A stretch of 64,000 nucleotides of DNA, taken from the NCBI GenBank assembly GCA_023205875.1, contig CP060755.1, positions 372,001 through 436,000 on the forward strand, written 5' to 3'. Numbering within the stretch: the first letter of the stretch is position 1; each line of letters opens with the position of its first letter. The DNA is from Chloropicon primus (Eukaryota). A program made the translations under genes and the position numbers. Shown here piece after piece: positions 2,709 to 46,787 of the stretch. Under the pieces are notes generated by a model that saw only the letters and a program-made list of their open reading frames with translations, was not told where the DNA came from and searched no databases.

Positions 2709-4067
2709 ATGAGCAAGCAATCGAAAGAGGAGCACCAGAGGCACATGAGGATCCTGCAGAGGTTGCTCAAGAAGCCTGAAAACGCTTTGTGCGCGGACTG
2801 CCCCAGCAGGAGCCCTCGGTGGGCGAGCATCAACCTCGGCGTGTTCATCTGCATCACCTGCTCGGGAATCCACAGAGGCCTTGGCGTCCACATCTCCAAG
2901 GTGAGGTCCACGAACTTGGACACTTGGTTCCCGGAGCAGGTGGACTTCATGACGAAGATGGGAAACAAGAAGGCCAACGCCTATTGGGAGGCACAGTGTG
3001 GCCCGGACTTCAAGAAGCCCGGCGAGCAGGACAGGAGGAACTTGGAGGACTACATCAGGGCGAAGTACACTCGCAGCAAGTACGCAGACCCGGAGGCCGT
3101 GGCCCCGACGTACGAGAACTTCATCGCGGGGAAGGTGAAGCTGGAAGCGGAGGCGCCAGCGCCAGCACCGGTCCAGAAGGCGGCCGCGCCGGCTTTCTCG
3201 CCACCAATCCCGCAGCAGCAGAGCCAGCCGGCGGCAGCTCCTGCTCCAGCGGCGGGCGGTTTGAACGAGTGGGCGGACTTCTCCTCCGCCGCTACGCCTA
3301 CCACGAGCCAGCAGCCCGTTGAGGACCCCTTCCAAACGGCAGCCGCGCCTGCTGCCACCCCGGTCTCGGCACCGGTGGATTTATTCGCAGCACCCGCGGG
3401 GCAGCCTGCCCAGGCCGTGCCTGCAGCCGCTCCCGCGGCAGCGCCGGTGGATCCGTTTGCTAGCCAAGTTCCGGCGTCCCAGCCTGCCGCGGCGGCCACG
3501 ACCCCCGCGGCTTCTCCAGCTCCTGCCTCGGATCCTTTCGCGAACAGCTCTGGGTTCGACTCTTTGATGACCTTCGAGAGCTCTGCTTCGCAAGGCCAGG
3601 CTGCTGCTGCTGCTGTGACAAAGACGCTGACGGACGACATCATGAAGAAGTTCGACGAGGCGGCAGGCGGAATGCAAGCGGCGGTGCCCCCCCAAGGAAT
3701 GGGAATGGGAATGGGTAACGTGAGCATGAACATGGGCATGGGCATGGGGGGCTTCCAGATGCCGAACCAGCAACCTGGGTTTGGGATGCAACAGCAGCAG
3801 CAGCAGCAACAGCAGCAGCAATTTGGTATGATGCAGCAGCAACAACAGTTTGGAGGCATGATGCCCCAACAGCAGCAGTTCGCGGGAGGTATGCAGAACT
3901 CCATGCCCATGGGAGGAATGGGCATGCCACAGTTCCAGCAACAGGGTATGGCGTCTTACCAGATGCCTCAAGGGTACCAGGTTCAGCAACAACCAGTACA
4001 ATTTCAGAACCCAAATGGAATGCAGCAGCCCGGGATGCAACAATTCAACTTCCACCAAAACAACTAA
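2709..4067 (+). CDS. ArfGAP (SMAP/AGD5-like) with DPF/WxxF motifs and a Met/Gln-rich tail
   Basis: CADC-x16-CITCSGIHR zinc finger, LGVHISKVRS, YIRAKY; three DPF motifs; TGTAA at about 4145. Confidence 0.93.
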   Translation: MSKQSKEEHQRHMRILQRLLKKPENALCADCPSRSPRWASINLGVFICITCSGIHRGLGVHISKVRSTNLDTWFPEQVDFMTKMGNKKANAYWEAQCGPDFKKPGEQDRRNLEDYIRAKYTRSKYADPEAVAPTYENFIAGKVKLEAEAPAPAPVQKAAAPAFSPPIPQQQSQPAAAPAPAAGGLNEWADFSSAATPTTSQQPVEDPFQTAAAPAATPVSAPVDLFAAPAGQPAQAVPAAAPAAAPVDPFASQVPASQPAAAATTPAASPAPASDPFANSSGFDSLMTFESSASQGQAAAAAVTKTLTDDIMKKFDEAAGGMQAAVPPQGMGMGMGNVSMNMGMGMGGFQMPNQQPGFGMQQQQQQQQQQQFGMMQQQQQFGGMMPQQQQFAGGMQNSMPMGGMGMPQFQQQGMASYQMPQGYQVQQQPVQFQNPNGMQQPGMQQFNFHQNN

Positions 4068-29746: not shown

Positions 29747-31507
29747 TCACAGGCCCCTGAAATCCTCGATCGAGGCGACCGAGCTGGAAAGGCCGATGCT
29801 CCCCACCAGGAGGAGACCGTCGTTTTTGCCGCCCAGGATGGACGGGCTCTGCTTCCCCTCCTCCTCCCCCTGAGAAGGTTTTTTGGAAGGTGCGGGCTTC
29901 CTTGGTTTCGTGGCCTTGCTCCAGTCAAGAAAGCACTCGACGGTCCCTTGGAGGTTCTCGACCTCGTCGTCCGAAGAATCCTCGAAACCCAAGTCCGCAG
30001 GAGAAGTCTTGCCCTTCTCCGAATCAGGCGCGGGGTCCACATCCAGGACCTGGAAAGGCAGCAATTCCTGGGGGACCTGGAAAGGCTTGGGCGGCGCGCC
30101 CGCAACCGGGTCATCGCTGGACAGGCCCCAAGCTTCCTCCATGAGCTCGTCCACAGGCGTCCGGTAGGGAACAATCGCCTTGCTTGGCGAGGAGGTCGGG
30201 GGTTGCCTTGAGCTGGCCTCCCTCGCAGAGATCTCGTTCAGAACCCTGTCTAGAGTGAAGACCTCCATGTTGACGTTTGGGTTGAGGCCCAGGGCCCTCC
30301 AGCCCCAAGAGTAGTCTAGCAAGACTTGGTCGGCAATGTCCCCCGCGCAGCAGTAGGCCTGGCCCAGCAGGGCCGTCGTGCTGCAAGCGATGCTGCCTGC
30401 CACCCTGGAAAAGGCGGTGAGTGGACTCATCCTCCCAAAGTTACTCGATGAATTGCTTCCGGTGCCCTGAGAGTTGGACTCTCCCAGCTCCTCCAGGAAC
30501 TCCTTGATCTCCGGGGGATCGCCCATGCCATCCATGGCATCCAGGTCGTCGCTCTCCGGGCCATTCTCCTCGTTGTCGCTCTCGAACCCAGAATTACTCG
30601 AGCTCGGGAGGTTCAGACCAGACACCATGGTCGCCGCCTTGACAACGTCCGAGACGGTCTGCTTCCTATTCGATTTCCTTTTCGATATGAGTGACTGGCA
30701 CAGGATCCTCCTGGCGATCGACCAGGCTTGCTCGAGCTGGGTCGAGGACAGAAACATCGGCTTGTAAGAGACTGCGCCTTTGTCTGTTTTGAGGACCACC
30801 CTCACCCCTGGCACGGAGAAAAGGGGCACCACGGACGTTTGCCGTCCCCCCAGAAGCCTTGCCGCCTCCTTCTCCCCGCTCTCCTCCTGGACGATCTTCC
30901 TGGCGCTCTCGCGCTCCGCTTCGTCGCAGGCAATCTCATAGTACGTTGGGAACTTCCGCGTGAGCTTGAAAGCCAAGGACAAAGGCAACGAGCTCACTTG
31001 GTCCGATTTTTCGTCTCTCTTCGCCACCCGCTTGGCCTTTCTCTGCCTCTCTTTCCCCTTCGAGTCGGCCGGAGTTTCGCGCATAGGCAAACACACAAGG
31101 AAGCAAGTCAGTCCGCCACGCCAGGCAATGCAGCCCACTCAGGAGAGACAGAGAGACACAGAGAGACAGAGATCAATAGGCAAACGTCTCCTCACCTTCG
31201 CAAGCCTCGGCGCCCACTCGGCGAAGCTTTGCGTCCACTGGACCCCGTTCCACCACCCCCGCCCCTTCCCCTCGCCCCGCTTCAGCTTCCTCCTCGCCCT
31301 CGAGACGACCTCTCGCCTGACTTTGCAGGCACTTTTCGCAGACTCCTTGCTCGCGAAGAACTGCAGCTTGAGTCCCCCTGCTCCTTCCCTCGTCCCGAGC
31401 GAGTCCACATTCACCGTCGCCCTGTTGAAGTGGTACAGCACCCCAAGGCACGCCACCGGGACCCTCTTCCCCTTCCTCCTCTCCTTCCCCTCCCCACCGC
31501 TCGCCAT
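29747..31507 (-). CDS. Tic22-like protein with insertions; approximate exons 31507-31196 and 30964-29747
   Basis: VVPLFSV...YKPMFLSSTQLEQAW and EVFTLDRVL resemble Tic22 blocks; phase-0 GTGAGG donor; acceptor choice uncertain. Confidence 0.5.
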
Positions 31508-32908: not shown

Positions 32909-33050
32909 AGATCGATCATGACCGCATCGGTTGTGTAATGTAACTTCTTATTCCTTGTTGTTGCACTCTCTCTGTTGCTCTTAACTCTCCAGCAAGCTTC
33001 ACTCTCATCTCGTCGTCAGTCGAAGGCGAAGGCGAAGGCGAAGGGTGGTG

Positions 33051-33350
33051 ATGAGCTTGCCGAGGAACGGACGAAACGGTCTGAATAATCTGCTCAAGGC
33101 TGCGGACAGGGTCGGACTCGCTCTCTGCGGCGCCGCCTTGGCCGCCTACGTCATCTTTGAACCGGGCAAGGAGTAAGTCACGTCCAGGTTTCTCCACCTC
33201 AACTCGATCTCGATGGAAACGCACACTGACACACGTAGCTCTCTCTCTCTCTCTCTGCTGGTTCCGTCGGTGCCCAGAAAGCCGCTGCAGAAGGAAAAGC
33301 AGCGCAAGGCTACCGAAGCCCTCAAGGAGAGGGCGGAGAGGCGAGGGTAG
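33051..33350 (+). CDS. 64-aa single-TM microprotein, absent from the ORF track; exons 33051-33172 and 33278-33350
   Basis: MSLPRNGRNGLNNLLKAADRVGLALCGAALAAYVIFEPGKEKPLQKEKQRKATEALKERAERRG; intron GTAAGT...ACTGAC...(CT)n...CAG. Confidence 0.65.
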
Positions 33351-33393
33351 GCGCAAAGGCGTCACTCGGAGGCACGGCCTCGAGCTGAGAGAG

Positions 33394-33612
33394 ATGCCAT
33401 TGTTGGGAGGTGCGAGGGCTGGGAGCGGGGAATTCGTGTCGAGCGCCAAGGAGGACTGCACGAGCTGTCGCGTGATTGGGACCGTCGCTTGCCTCGGGAG
33501 CAGCGCCTACATTGCATTTCATACGCAGGGAAAGAAGGGTTTCCACAGATCGATCGGGGTGTTTGCCTCGACAGGCCTCATCGTCATGGGAGCTATGAGA
33601 GCCTTGACGTGA
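33394..33612 (+). CDS. DUF4536/DMAC1(TMEM261)-like small membrane protein, 72 aa
   Basis: EDCTSCRVIG CxxC followed by two short hydrophobic helices ending MGAMRA. Confidence 0.72.
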   Translation: MPLLGGARAGSGEFVSSAKEDCTSCRVIGTVACLGSSAYIAFHTQGKKGFHRSIGVFASTGLIVMGAMRALT

Positions 33613-33650
33613 GAGAGGGACAAAGGCGTTTTAGACGTTGGGAACTGAGG

Positions 33651-34760
33651 ATGGGGACAAAGCGGTGGGGGCTGAGCCCCGTGTGGCACCCCATGAACAT
33701 GATCCGAATGGTGGTGTGGTTCATATACCTGTTGCTGTCCCACGCCCAGGTTTTTCGGAAACCAGGGGAACGTGATGACTGGAAGCAGAAGCTCCCCAAA
33801 GTGAGCTTGGGAGGCTCCACCGTCATGATCACCGGGCCATCCTCTGGCCTAGGTTTCGCGTTTGCCCTCGAGTTCGCCAAAGTGAAGGGTTGCCACGTTG
33901 TGCTCCTGTGCAGGACCGCAGCGAGTGCCGAGGCCACGGAGTCCAGGATAAGGCGTGCGATTCCGGACGCAAGCTTGGAATCCTTTGCTCTTGACTTGCG
34001 TGATCCCCAAGGTGTTCTCTCGTTTGCAAGGAGATTCGCTCAAGGGCTTGGCGCAAGGGGAAAACGCCGTCCACCCCTGAAACTCTTGGTGAACAATGCT
34101 GGGGTCTACAGTCGCCAGGCCACTTACACCGAGGCGCACGGTTTGGAGAGGACGTTTGCAGCAAATATTTTCGGCCACTACCTTCTGACCGACGAGCTCC
34201 TGCCCCTCCTTTCCGAGGCCCGGGGCACGGTGGCGTTCACCAGCTCCTTCTCGCACAGGGCGGTGACGGAGTCCGAATTCCAGGCCTTTCTGAAAGGAGT
34301 GGTGCACCGCGGGGAGGACAAAGGCCACAGCAAGGGCGGGTCAAGGAAGGCGAAGATGTACCCCGCGCAGGCATACGCATGCACGAAGCTGGCCGTGCTG
34401 CTGCTTCCTGAATACTTGAGATCCGCGAGCAGATACGAGGGGGTCAAGTACCTTTGGGTCGACCCCGGAGCAGTGAACACAAGAATCACGAGATCGTGGC
34501 CCTGCTTGCTAGTCGGATCCTATCAGATAGTGCTGAAGGCACTCGGTCTGTTCGCGGACCCCGCGAGAATTGCAGCGAGCCTTGCCGGGGCAATACAAGG
34601 CGGCTTGGACGGCGTCTACCTTTTTGGCGAAAGGGGGGATCGCTTGAACGCCTCGATGCTTTCCAAGGACTTGGGCCTTGCCCTGCAGCTGGTCCACAGG
34701 TGCGAGGACGTCAGGAGGAGCTTAAACTTGTGCGAACAACGCGAGTTGTGTCAGCGGTAG
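33651..34760 (+). CDS. Short-chain dehydrogenase/reductase (retinol-dehydrogenase/FEY-like) with an N-terminal anchor
   Basis: TGPSSGLG, NNAG, YACTK, DPGAVNT. Confidence 0.9.
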   Translation: MGTKRWGLSPVWHPMNMIRMVVWFIYLLLSHAQVFRKPGERDDWKQKLPKVSLGGSTVMITGPSSGLGFAFALEFAKVKGCHVVLLCRTAASAEATESRIRRAIPDASLESFALDLRDPQGVLSFARRFAQGLGARGKRRPPLKLLVNNAGVYSRQATYTEAHGLERTFAANIFGHYLLTDELLPLLSEARGTVAFTSSFSHRAVTESEFQAFLKGVVHRGEDKGHSKGGSRKAKMYPAQAYACTKLAVLLLPEYLRSASRYEGVKYLWVDPGAVNTRITRSWPCLLVGSYQIVLKALGLFADPARIAASLAGAIQGGLDGVYLFGERGDRLNASMLSKDLGLALQLVHRCEDVRRSLNLCEQRELCQR

Positions 34761-34806
34761 CTATGTGATACAACAGAAATACATTTTAACGGGTCCGCTT
34801 CCCTTT

Positions 34807-35565
34807 TTACATATCAAGCAAGGCGTCGAGCTCGTCGTCTTCGTCGTTGAGTCCCAAGCCGCTCACTTGCGCCGTAACGTCTTGCTCACTTTCCCCTCGA
34901 TTATCAAAGCTCAGAAGCTCCTCTAGGTCCTCGTCCTCTTGGTTTTGCCCCTGCACCTTGACCACGCTCTTGGCCTTGTGGTTTGGTTGATCAGCAGCAC
35001 CTTGCCCCCCCTTCGCTCTTGGCTTCCTTGGCCTTGCAGGTTTGTGTGGTGGCGCACCCATCTCGGGCACCATCCTTTCGTCGAGGCCTCGAACAAGCTT
35101 CTCGGCAGGTAGCTGAGCCAAGGCGTACTCCAGCGCCCCCAGATCCAAATCGAAGAGGTCCCTCGTGGATGTGTCAAACTGGAGTGCATCCAGCGAGAAG
35201 CCATCGCTTGACTCCCCCCACACGAACCCCCATCGCTGCTCTGCTGACGTCGACGTCGCGGCCGCTCCCGCCGCGTACCATCGGTCGCTCGACGCCTGGC
35301 TTATCAATTCTTCGAGGTCCAGATCGCGGTCCACTTGGTTGTAATCCACCCCATCCCTTGTGAGGGACTCCACCTGCTGCTGCTGTTCTGCGACTCGTTG
35401 GCCCTCGCCTTCCTCGACGTCCCTTTCGCGCCTCGGGTCGATGGGCTTGGTGCTCGTGTCGTCCTTCCGCGATTTCGTCGGACCGCCACGCTTCCTGTGG
35501 TCTCTCCCCTTCTTGCCCTTGTAGGCCTTCCTGGCCGGGGCGGTGGAGAACTCGCCACCCTCCAT
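34807..35565 (-). CDS. Low-complexity protein, possibly Aven/CER16-like
   Basis: Basic RG-rich N-terminus, LDLGALEYALAQLP block, C-terminal DELDALLD. Confidence 0.5.
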   Translation of the reverse strand: MEGGEFSTAPARKAYKGKKGRDHRKRGGPTKSRKDDTSTKPIDPRRERDVEEGEGQRVAEQQQQVESLTRDGVDYNQVDRDLDLEELISQASSDRWYAAGAAATSTSAEQRWGFVWGESSDGFSLDALQFDTSTRDLFDLDLGALEYALAQLPAEKLVRGLDERMVPEMGAPPHKPARPRKPRAKGGQGAADQPNHKAKSVVKVQGQNQEDEDLEELLSFDNRGESEQDVTAQVSGLGLNDEDDELDALLDM

Positions 35566-35851
35566 GATATGATTGCTCGTTTGTCTGATGGCCACGGCCA
35601 CCACTTGGGCATTGCCCGAGGGAGGAGGAGGAAGCGAGGAGTTGTCTTGTTGATTAAATGATCAATTAGCAAGTCATAAGTAATAAGTGGTCTCAATCCT
35701 TGCTGCTGCCGTTGTGGGACCAGACCCAGAACGCGATGCCGTCGTTCCCAGGGCCATCACCCCCCGTGCTCTCCCACAAGGGGCAGCAAGGATTCCGCAT
35801 CCCCCCTTCGCTCGGGGACAGGAGACCCCTCCAAGCAATGCTGCGGGGCGA

Positions 35852-36658
35852 TCAGATGCCGAACCAAAAGGTTCTCAGCGTGCCCATGCAAGTGGAGCAG
35901 GAGGAGCGGCTTTCAACAAGGAGGAAGCGGTGGGAAAAGAGTTAGAAAGTCATCGAAATCGTCTCCGGAGCGGAATGATTCTTGTGCCGGGCACGGACGG
36001 TCGCCCTCACCTCTTGCTCGCTTGCTGGTGGTAGTAGTAGTACTGCAGCTGCTGATTGGTGTGGAGCGAGATGCGGCTCTGGCTTCTGTTCTGGACCGCG
36101 ACGCTGCTTCTGTCCCTCCATGTCCCCCTGTCCGACCGGAACGACCGAGGCGTAATCAGGTGATACTCCGAGATTGACCTCCCCGGTATTTCCTTGTCGA
36201 TCCACGTCACAGACTTTTTCACGGGACTGACCCGGCTCCCCCCGCACCCGTCGCCTTTCCAAGGCCTCTTGAGAGACGGCCTTCGCTGCAGCGGCGCGTG
36301 CCGCCTCTTCTGCCGCGAATCCTCCTCCTTGTCGTCGAGAGCGTTTGCCGAGTGGTAACTGCCGAGCGATGAATACGATTTGATTGCGGCGGTAAAGGGA
36401 GAGAGAGGGAGGAAGGGATGGAGGAGCGCGCGCGTACGCTCTCGTCAGTCATCGCCCCGACGAAAGGCAGCCGAAAGAAAAACATTCTCACCTGGCGCTA
36501 TCGGTAAGCGTTCTGTGCACCTCCTGCATTCGCTGGACCTGCACGCTGTACGGCTCGCTCGCTATCCTGTGCAGCTTCGTGCCGCCCTTCTTGTGCTTCC
36601 CCTTCCCCTTCGTGTGCGACAGCACTTGGTCGTCCCCAACCACCCACGTCTTCAGCAT
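35852..36658 (-). CDS. Three-exon protein of about 190 aa with PP1-docking motifs; exons 36658-36492, 36358-36011, 35909-35852
   Basis: Two phase-2 GTGAG introns with ACTGAC and CTAAC branch points keep the frame; RPSLKR...KKSVTWID. Confidence 0.65.
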
Positions 36659-37388
36659 ACCTTCCCAGCAATCGACAGAGCGCCCGCGTACCCGTTACTC
36701 TGGACGTGGAGTCTTGCAGACGGCCCTCATCCGGAGAACACCAGAACCGTGTTCCTCCCGCGTTCCTTCGCGGCGTGCGTGGTGGCCCCCCAGCCTCCGT
36801 CGTCGTCGTCCTCGTCGTCGTGTGGACTGTTTTCAATGAGACCAAACCTCCGTGCGATTGCGAGGGGTCGACTCCACCTTCCTCGTTGCCGTCGCCCCTC
36901 CCTTCCCTCGGGGGTAACGCTCCCCATGGCGGAGGGCTTTTGCGAGGGGCGGGAGTTGACACCGGGGGAGAGGGATGGGGATGCGAGAGGGCTCGCAGGG
37001 GGATGGACTCTCCTCCCCCTCCCCTTTCGAAAGAGCTCTCCCTCGACGCCATCGGCGCACGGACGGAGGAACTGAGCCAAGGATCCTCATCGGTGCGGAG
37101 GATGCTGAGGATGGCGGCCCTCGGCGGCGAGAGATGGAGGGCGCCGAGGGGAGGGATGCGAGAGATGGAATGCGAGAGGTGGAATGCGAGGGATGCGAGG
37201 CCGCCTTCCCCTCCTCTCCCTCCTAGCCGTCCGACCCCCATTGCGCTTTCGCATCGCAGTGCAATCGCGGTCTCCAGCAGGAGTGTCCGAGATCGAGGCG
37301 CTGGAAGGCGAGCGACAAAGTGTGTGGCTCTCCTGCGCGCGTCGCGTCGCGTGGCGTCTCTCCTGGTGTCTACGTCGAGGAGTCAGAG

Positions 37389-45058: not shown

Positions 45059-46787
45059 ATGGAGAGGGTGCGAGGGCGGTCGGGGCTTGCGGTGAGGGGG
45101 GACACGCTGGTGGTGCCTCCGTTTGAAGCAGGCTGGCTGAAGCTTGGGAGGCGGTCGTGCTGCCTGCACTTCGAGGCGAAAAGCACGAACGACATCACCT
45201 TGATACTTGACACGTCTTCGAGTCCTGGCGGGAAGCGCTTCGGAGTGCAGAGGCCGAACTCGAGCACCTACACGGTGATCATAGGAAGCCACGGTAACTC
45301 CAGGTTGATCATAGAACGTAATGCGAAGATTGTCGTGGCCACGAGCCACGTGCACAAGCAGGGGGAGGATTTCAGCCAGTACTGGGTCGATTACAACGCC
45401 GGGAAGATAACTGTGGGGAGCGGGAGGAGGGGGTCGGGGTGCCTCGTCTCGTGGCAGGACGAGACGCCGCACGACATCGAAAGCATCGGCCTCAGTTCGT
45501 GGGACAAGCACGTCTTGTACAGGAACGTGTCGCTCAGTAATCCAGTTGACGACGACTCGTTCAGTTCCAAGGCCAGAAGAAGAAGCTCGGCTTCGGGGGC
45601 GGAACTCATGCCTGGCGAGGTGGCGTCCTTGCAGGCGCTGAGCTGCGAGAAGCTTGCAGACTCGCTCAGGGTGAGCAACTGCCTCAGAACCCTGGCGGTC
45701 GCCGAAGACTTCAACAAGAAAGCTCTCGTGAACGTGGTCCTGGAGTTCGTGTCCATGAACTTTGTGGGTGTCGTCCAGCGGCACGAAGAGATATTCTCCC
45801 TCTCCGAGCGAGACCTGGCAGACATTCTGGATAGGGACGTCCTTAACAGCATTTCAGAGGTAAGTTTGACCTGCAAGACCCTCCTCGGGCTAGAAGCGGC
45901 GCGACTGACTGAACGGTGTTTTTGTCTTTGCATAGATATGGATTTTTGACGTCCTGATGCTTTGGTGGGGCAAGCAAGCTGCTTCGAGGGACCCCAAGAC
46001 TCTGCAGAACCTCTTCCAGTTCGTGCGGTTCCCTTTGATGGACGCGAAGGATCTTGGGCGAATCGTGGAGATGGACATCTTCAAACAGAGCGCGTGCTTG
46101 CGCTCGTTGATCGAGGAAGCCAGAGAGAGTCACAGCCATGGGGACTCGACGAGCAAAAAGGGAAGCTTTCGGATCATCTCGGGGAGGGACATTGAGATAG
46201 TAGACGACGGCCACATGGCGAGAAGGCGCCTGCAGCCTCGGAGGTCTCCCCACCTCAAAGAGCTCCTTTACACGCATGACGGGGACGAGGGAGGGGTCTG
46301 CTTCTTCCTTGGAACGCTCCAAGGAGTTCCAGTCGCCTTGACCAACTCGGTCTCGCTAAGCGCCTCTAGCCCCCACTCGAGGTTCTCGAACCCCAAAGCC
46401 GTGCTGTCGAGGGTCTCTCTCCCCACGTCCTATTTTGAGCCCCAGTACCACCCGGAGACTGGGCGCAAGGAGTCGTGGTGGGAAATCAACCTGCACAGGA
46501 ACTTGAGCTGCAACCACTACAGCCTGAGGCACGACGCCTCGCCCGATGGATTCCTGAGGACCTGGGAGCTCAGAGGCAGCGCGGATGGGAAGACTTGGAC
46601 GACTCTTAGGACACACACCAACGACACGACGATCCAGAAGGCGTATCAGTACGCCAGCTGGCCGATTTTTGCGGACGAAGACTTCAAGATCTTTAGAATC
46701 GTCCTCACCGGTCCAAACGCATCGAAGATGAATCCTTACAGGCTCTACATCAGCTGGTTCGAGCTGTACGGCTACCTCGAAGTGTAG
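45059..46787 (+). CDS. Farnesoic-acid-OMT-like + BACK + F5/8-type-C domain protein; exons 45059-45859 and 45936-46787
   Basis: YTVIIGSHGNSRLIIE, IGLSSWDKHVLYRN, VRFPLM, CNHYSLRHD...WELRGSADGKTW; phase-0 intron. Confidence 0.8.

Follow-up and report, generated by a model that had tools for sequence, protein, structure and literature searches.

A tight arrangement of three ORFs on the forward strand of the Chloropicon primus nuclear genome was found to be a genuine conserved feature, and it is probably transcribed as one tricistronic mRNA yielding three separate proteins: a predicted membrane microprotein (ORF1), a DMAC1/Dmo2-like protein (ORF2), and an SDR enzyme (ORF3). The locus lies in a 64,000-nt stretch of contig CP060755.1 (positions 372,001 to 436,000; hereafter the window, whose numbering is used throughout) with a base composition of ~57% GC. 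The coordinates of the three co-oriented ORFs and of the 43- and 38-nt spacers given in the original prediction all check out, and neither spacer contains ATG or TGTAA, as had been claimed. The locus and its neighbours consist of the following parts:

32909..32955, forward strand: 3' end of S4/YlmH, the gene before the unit, carrying TGTAA in tandem; a control outside the unit
33001..33050, forward strand: 5' leader of at least 50 nt, without ATG; the X1 contig starts at 33001
33051..33172, forward strand: ORF1 exon 1, encoding the conserved motif PRxGR..L..LL...DR.G and a single predicted transmembrane helix
33173..33277, forward strand: ORF1 intron, GT-AG, 105 nt; the joint 33172>33278 is present in the X1 and X2 contigs
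33278..33350, forward strand: ORF1 exon 2, encoding a charged C-terminal tail, with a TAG stop; ORF1 totals 64 aa
33351..33393, forward strand: spacer 1, 43 nt, GC-rich, without ATG
33394..33612, forward strand: ORF2, 72 aa, DMAC1/Dmo2-like, with CxxC and two hydrophobic segments
33586..33612, forward strand: Met65 of ORF2, a conserved internal AUG flanked as G-xx-ATG-G; the mini-frame beginning there has 8 codons and closes at the ORF2 stop
33613..33650, forward strand: spacer 2, 38 nt, without ATG
33651..34760, forward strand: ORF3, classical SDR, 369 aa, with a hydrophobic N-terminal segment and the motifs TGxxxGxG, NNAG, and YxxxK
34761..34820, forward strand: 3' region past ORF3, AT-rich (37% GC), with TGTGA at 34764 and no TGTAA
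34807-35565, reverse strand: convergent gene, protein cluster name A3770_02p12510

In C. primus the S4 stop is separated from the ORF1 start by a 142-nt gap. At the other end, the 3' region at 34761..34820 doubles as the 3' end territory of the convergent gene; the stops of ORF3 and of this gene are 46 nt apart, and the TGTAA of the convergent gene overlaps its own stop codon (34761-34823).

A metagenome scan with an ORF2 alignment gave loci for four of 93 candidates (L001-L004), representing two other lineages, and an ORF3-based scan found no relative among the 93. L003 overlaps L002 with identity at 294 of 297 nt, and L001, L002, and L003 stand for one of these lineages. All three ORFs (75, 66, and 367 aa) are present on a single contig in L004, with spacers of 6 and 48 nt; L003 carries ORF1 and ORF2 with a first spacer of 169 nt, and L001/L002 carry ORF2 and ORF3 with a second spacer of 28 nt. 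The order ORF1-ORF2-ORF3, for which the original prediction had proposed a synteny check in related algae, is kept in these two further lineages, and ORF1 and ORF2, on whose conservation it had made itself depend, are conserved proteins there. Identity to the relatives is 41-50% for ORF1, 67-70% for ORF2, and 41-47% for ORF3. The three ORFs are more than chance, all of them being under purifying selection as proteins; pS (0.54-0.77) exceeds pN (0.19-0.44) in all nine comparisons, with values of 0.56-0.62 and 0.19-0.24, respectively, for ORF2.

The genes flanking the three ORFs are also syntenic in the relatives, and a majority of genes are collinear among Chloropicon species, as described in the available text of PMC12301720, so gene order by itself carries little weight. 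What is telling is how close the ORFs lie: over the three lineages five of the six spacers fall within 6-48 nt, the remaining one being 169 nt, and the 6-nt spacer of L004 leaves no room for a 3' end plus a promoter. The 169-nt spacer 1 of L003 is large enough for a promoter. Spacer 1 is polymorphic just 5' of the ORF2 start, with an AT microsatellite in L002 and L003 and a longer, different stretch in L001 (100-128); the 128 nt of spacer 1 present in L001 contain no ATG.

Transcript evidence came from short-read contigs of five runs out of nine, the run type being presumed to be RNA. The spliced contigs of two of the five runs, X1 (33001-35556) and X2 (33064-35573), which belong to two different studies, cross both spacers; the only joint seen by ORF1 is 33172>33278, and no joint in them skips either spacer. 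In all three runs that cover the S4 gene (X1, X2, and X3) its contigs stop at 32925-32955, close to the tandem TGTAA that the original prediction had correctly placed behind this gene (32934 and 32939), and a gap follows until 33001. X3 (depth 7-8) has contigs over 33654-34767, starting after the ORF3 ATG, and none over ORF1 or ORF2; this would fit a separate SDR transcript, but a stretch lacking coverage is not a finding, and X3 was counted neither for nor against. X4 covers neither ORF2 nor ORF3, and X5 yielded only unrelated short matches plus the convergent gene. The X1 and X2 contigs also extend into the convergent minus-strand gene, which implies overlapping 3' ends and means that such contigs can merge separate overlapping RNAs. 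The contigs are compatible with one mRNA and are no proof of a single molecule.

The S4 gene was considered as a fourth cistron and rejected on account of the contig break and of an F-box/ankyrin gene that separates S4 from ORF1 in L003. This gene (L003:2308-3378, minus strand, 356 aa, F-box plus ankyrin repeats) is absent from the corresponding place in C. primus, and the comparison does not polarise gain versus loss.

The original prediction had set the TGTAA-free spacers against the tandem TGTAA of S4, an argument that is weak. Among 37 long window ORFs (some of them spurious or intron-cut), just 8 have TGTAA behind them; the motif occurs in the window at 0.00033 per nt and is next met downstream of ORF3 only at 35340, none being found downstream of ORF3 in any of the three lineages. 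TGTAA was therefore rejected as a 3'-end marker, and its absence from 81 nt of spacer is uninformative. An AT-rich patch is a better marker and is clearest behind ORF3. When the lowest GC content over 40 nt within 120 nt past the stop was determined for 32 control ORFs, including ORF3 and S4 (35 were listed and three with a donor-like motif nearby were removed), it was at most 0.42 in 30 of them. The values in the three lineages were 0.35, 0.35, and 0.38 for ORF3, 0.60, 0.65, and 0.47 for ORF1, and 0.42, 0.50, and 0.55 for ORF2, those for ORF1 and ORF2 partly reflecting the coding sequence behind them and the loci of the relatives being GC-richer than the controls.

The spliced ORF1 of C. primus has no internal ATG, as had been predicted; the ATG at 33213 belongs to the intron and is deleted by splicing. 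No ATG occurs from start 1 to start 2 in any of the three lineages (235, 231, and 358 nt), and from start 2 to start 3 each has only two in-frame Met codons, which in C. primus are those expected late in ORF2, at 33586 and 33595. For C. primus alone the ATG-free 235 nt are unremarkable, 44 of 356 coding windows of this length being without ATG, so the stretch gains weight only across lineages. In ORF1 and ORF2 there were 0 out-of-frame ATGs where synonymous shuffling predicts 2.85 (product P 0.036), a modest post hoc statistic, like the other ATG counts, obtained on related lineages; there was no deficit elsewhere, with 13 against 11.0 expected in ORF3 and 157 against 157.6 in the window ORFs. 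Counted from the homologous start, which in two cases replaced the longer start of the gene caller, seven ORF1 homologues have no internal Met in 470 codons, compared with 1.9% Met in the window ORFs.

The start contexts read gtgATGa, gagATGc, and aggATGg, letter for letter as proposed, and AUG1 is not clearly weak: its context (G at -3, A at +4) is ordinary among 32 unverified window starts, 26 of which have a purine at -3, 12 an A and 14 a G at +4. A weak T at -3 was found at AUG1 and AUG2 of L004 and at AUG2 of L003. The two late AUGs of ORF2 are present as predicted and are not harmless, one of them being conserved in a strong context: Met65 is invariant in five of five aligned sequences, lies in G-xx-ATG-G in all three loci, and in each opens a frame of 8-9 codons ending 28-48 nt before ORF3. 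In the portion of PMC11892635 available, a strong internal AUG sharply lowered downstream expression. With such an AUG conserved in ORF2, leaky scanning is probably not enough for ORF3, which would call for reinitiation or another start site in addition.

A tricistronic mRNA could work as follows. One capped transcript would run from a putative promoter near 33000 to a putative single poly(A) site past 34760. Some 40S subunits would initiate at AUG1, and the remaining ones would leak across the AUG-free ORF1 and spacer 1 to AUG2. ORF3 would be reached by leaking past AUG1 and AUG2, after which ribosomes would either pass over the late ORF2 AUGs or translate the mini-frames of 5-8 codons that these open and reinitiate 38 nt downstream. 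A shared pathway for the three proteins would not be required.

As the main alternative, the transcripts could be nested or overlapping: a long RNA may extend over the three ORFs, but most translation of ORF3, or of ORF2 and ORF3 together, would come from a shorter mRNA with its start inside an upstream ORF or spacer, and the locus would be partly polycistronic or bicistronic; we regard this as possible rather than probable. The strong AUG in ORF2 ahead of ORF3, the ordinary context of AUG1, and the 169-nt first spacer of L003 speak for such transcripts, as does the compactness of the genome, given as 0.5 genes per kb in the accessible part of PMC12301720. In the part of PMC7896298 at hand, 87 of 174 Chlamydomonas reinhardtii loci are just partly polycistronic, and the available text of PMC2803860 describes microsporidian transcripts that span several genes, overlap, and start internally. 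The microsporidian system shares with Chloropicon a compact genome and RNA coverage across neighbouring genes; however, downstream genes there have their own start sites, whereas at the Chloropicon locus AUG avoidance and the upstream break point to shared translation. Spacers of merely 6, 28, 38, 43, and 48 nt argue against nested transcripts, as do the lack of an AT-rich end patch behind ORF1 and ORF2 and the clean coverage break at the separate neighbouring S4 gene, and the avoidance of AUG and Met in the seven ORF1 homologues would have no evident purpose if ORF2 had a downstream start of its own.

A stronger version of the tricistronic reading appears unlikely. It would make the locus an obligate, Chloropicon-wide tricistron with leaky scanning to ORF2, the Met65 AUG serving as a built-in mini-uORF that relays ribosomes to ORF3 by reinitiation, and ORF1 being an unrecognised microprotein of a mitochondrial membrane, made together with the DMAC1-like factor.

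A profile search with ORF1 against 1.84 billion representatives returned 11 matches, seven of which are short family members; the other four are one apparent chimera and three long proteins, unrelated or unexamined. Common to all seven short homologues are the basic motif, a single hydrophobic segment, and a tail of charged residues. The residues encoded by exon 2 are identical to those of L003 at 11 of 16 positions. The intron is missing from L003 and L004, that is, from both related lineages, and was therefore gained or lost inside the group; in C. primus it contains a CT microsatellite. ORF1 had no Pfam match at the cut-off (MAS20 reached E 0.028 in one homologue only), no NCBIfam match, and no PDB match below E 0.08. 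Its leads in the Atlas search, COX6C, UPF0640, and MITRAC7, all scored below 0.9, and the AlphaFold model is a single long helix with a pTM of 0.30. As a weak lead, ORF1 may be a mitochondrial inner-membrane assembly factor as well.

In L003, an in-frame ATG at 3508 lies 105 nt 5' of the ORF1 start, and a 98-aa form is possible if transcription begins earlier. A 241-aa ENA protein (P0038) has an ORF1-like N-terminus followed by a sequence that looks GAPDH-like; it is probably an assembly chimera.

ORF2 matched Pfam PF15055 with an E value of 9e-5, under the cut-off, and the four ORF2-type sequences all scored below the 27-bit threshold (23.0, 21.8, 25.5, and 25.0 bits; E 1e-5 to 2e-4), the match spanning 25-41 of 47 profile positions. 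The best ten family-bearing matches in the Atlas search were all DMAC1_Dmo2. Members of this family, DMAC1 (TMEM261) and yeast Dmo2, are like ORF2 small proteins with a CxxC near the N-terminus and two hydrophobic segments; in ORF2 the two cysteines (C22/C25) are invariant in five of five aligned sequences, and hydropathy plots have two peaks in two of three sequences, the first being weak. Unlike these members, ORF2 reaches just 21.8-25.5 bits, short of the 27-bit cut-off, and it is therefore classed as DMAC1-like, as originally proposed, and not as a family member. Yeast Dmo2 is an inner-membrane protein in which CxxC is essential, according to the available portion of bioRxiv 2023.06.12.544600. 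The likely role of ORF2 is that of an assembly factor in the mitochondrial inner membrane.

The predicted SDR identity of ORF3 was confirmed by a match to PF00106 (E 2e-22, 80 bits against a cut-off of 26.6) and by the catalytic motifs. TGxxxGxG, NNAG, Ser, and YxxxK are retained in the alignment of all three lineages, NNAG being CNAG in L002. With PF00106 and these motifs ORF3 resembles classical SDRs of the retinol-dehydrogenase/LPOR-like group, to which its nearest NCBIfam profiles belong (PRK05854 and PRK06197, all far under the cut-off), and its best solved-structure relatives are LPORs (E ~1e-15). Close homologues form six clusters only, the next matches having E values of 1e-25 or weaker; the orthologue cluster contains a C. 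mariensis record. An SDR bicistron of C. reinhardtii, Cre13.g587650/587700, was weighed as a possible orthologous pair but set aside: its upstream ORF has 639 nt and it failed a later high-confidence filter, so that its equivalence to the Chloropicon genes is not evident.

The protein search with ORF1 returned only a 39-aa call covering exon 1, and the exact sequence of ORF2 was not found among 15 billion proteins, so both small genes appear to be unannotated; the exact ORF3 sequence is present. That ORF1 and ORF2 are short and have no entry among the C. primus protein records, and that ORF1 has no Pfam family, would fit regulatory uORFs of a monocistronic SDR mRNA with functionless peptides. 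Such a role is very improbable: ORF2 is better conserved than the SDR (67-70% vs 41-47%) and retains the CxxC of the pan-eukaryotic family that it resembles, and the seven ORF1 homologues retain the motif and the membrane-helix layout. That the ORFs are parts of one or two longer proteins made by alternative splicing or stop-codon readthrough is hardly credible, for although acceptors slightly downstream (33281, 33290, and others) would join exon 1 in frame to ORF2 and L004 has all three ORFs in one frame with TGA stops, 33278 is the sole acceptor seen, the relatives are intronless, no joint skips a spacer, every ORF has its own stop, and the relative frames of successive ORFs (1/2, 0/0, and 1/1) and the stops vary by lineage.

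As a tricistronic mRNA, the Chloropicon locus would join a known class. Nuclear polycistronic loci and leaky scanning are established in other chlorophytes, according to the available text of Gallaher et al. 2021 (PMC7896298) and Duenas et al. 2025 (PMC11892635), and three-gene loci are known though uncommon, a third gene being listed for 2 of the 87 fully polycistronic C. reinhardtii loci in the accessible part of the former. The same part gives up to six genes for C. zofingiensis loci. In A. protothecoides, the available sections of PMC11892635 report a median spacer of 40 nt, a 5' UTR of 54 nt, a short AUG-poor ORF1, and many mitochondrial assembly factors among the polycistrons. The features common to green-algal polycistrons and the Chloropicon locus are short upstream ORFs, spacers of tens of nucleotides, a short leader, preserved colinearity, an AUG-poor upstream region, and a likely mitochondrial assembly factor upstream. 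Unlike the typical case, the Chloropicon locus has three ORFs and a conserved strong AUG ahead of the last one. It is known from sequence and contigs, and its AUG depletion is full before ORF2 and partial before ORF3.

A literature search found no report of polycistrons in Chloropicon or of this gene set. No member of the Chloropicophyceae is mentioned among the species in the available text of PMC7896298 and PMC11892635, the searchable portion of their supplements, in which many listed ORFs are unlabelled, has no DMAC1/DUF4536 label, and the word 'cistronic' occurs 0 times in the text at hand of PMC6731263 and PMC12301720. What makes the locus valuable is its build of three ORFs, its place in a new algal class, and a pair of microproteins that had been overlooked. 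If the tricistronic reading is true, green-algal polycistronic mRNAs extend to the class Chloropicophyceae, with a compact (~1.7 kb) conserved three-ORF case beside the two-ORF loci on which mechanistic work has so far been done, and natural variation in start context and in the spacers, which range from 6 to 169 nt, makes access to the third ORF directly testable. Two conserved small genes, one of them a likely DMAC1 homologue, are lacking among the C. primus protein records, so further microproteins in these genomes probably escape gene callers that assume a single ORF for each mRNA.

Other genes recorded in the window were the following:

45059-46787, forward strand: one gene with two long ORFs and Methyltransf_FA, BACK, and F5/8 type C domains
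31139-31507 and 29747-31084, reverse strand: two ORFs divergent from S4, conserved in L003, with no Pfam family
35663-36761, reverse strand: spliced transcript with joints 35909-36011 and 36358-36492 and conserved DNA blocks in L001/L002

The first contains an apparent gene pair only 7 nt apart (45949/45957), which was rejected as a bicistron, both ORFs being parts of one intron-containing gene with a donor at 45861. The two minus-strand ORFs at 31139-31507 and 29747-31084 are probably exons of one gene.
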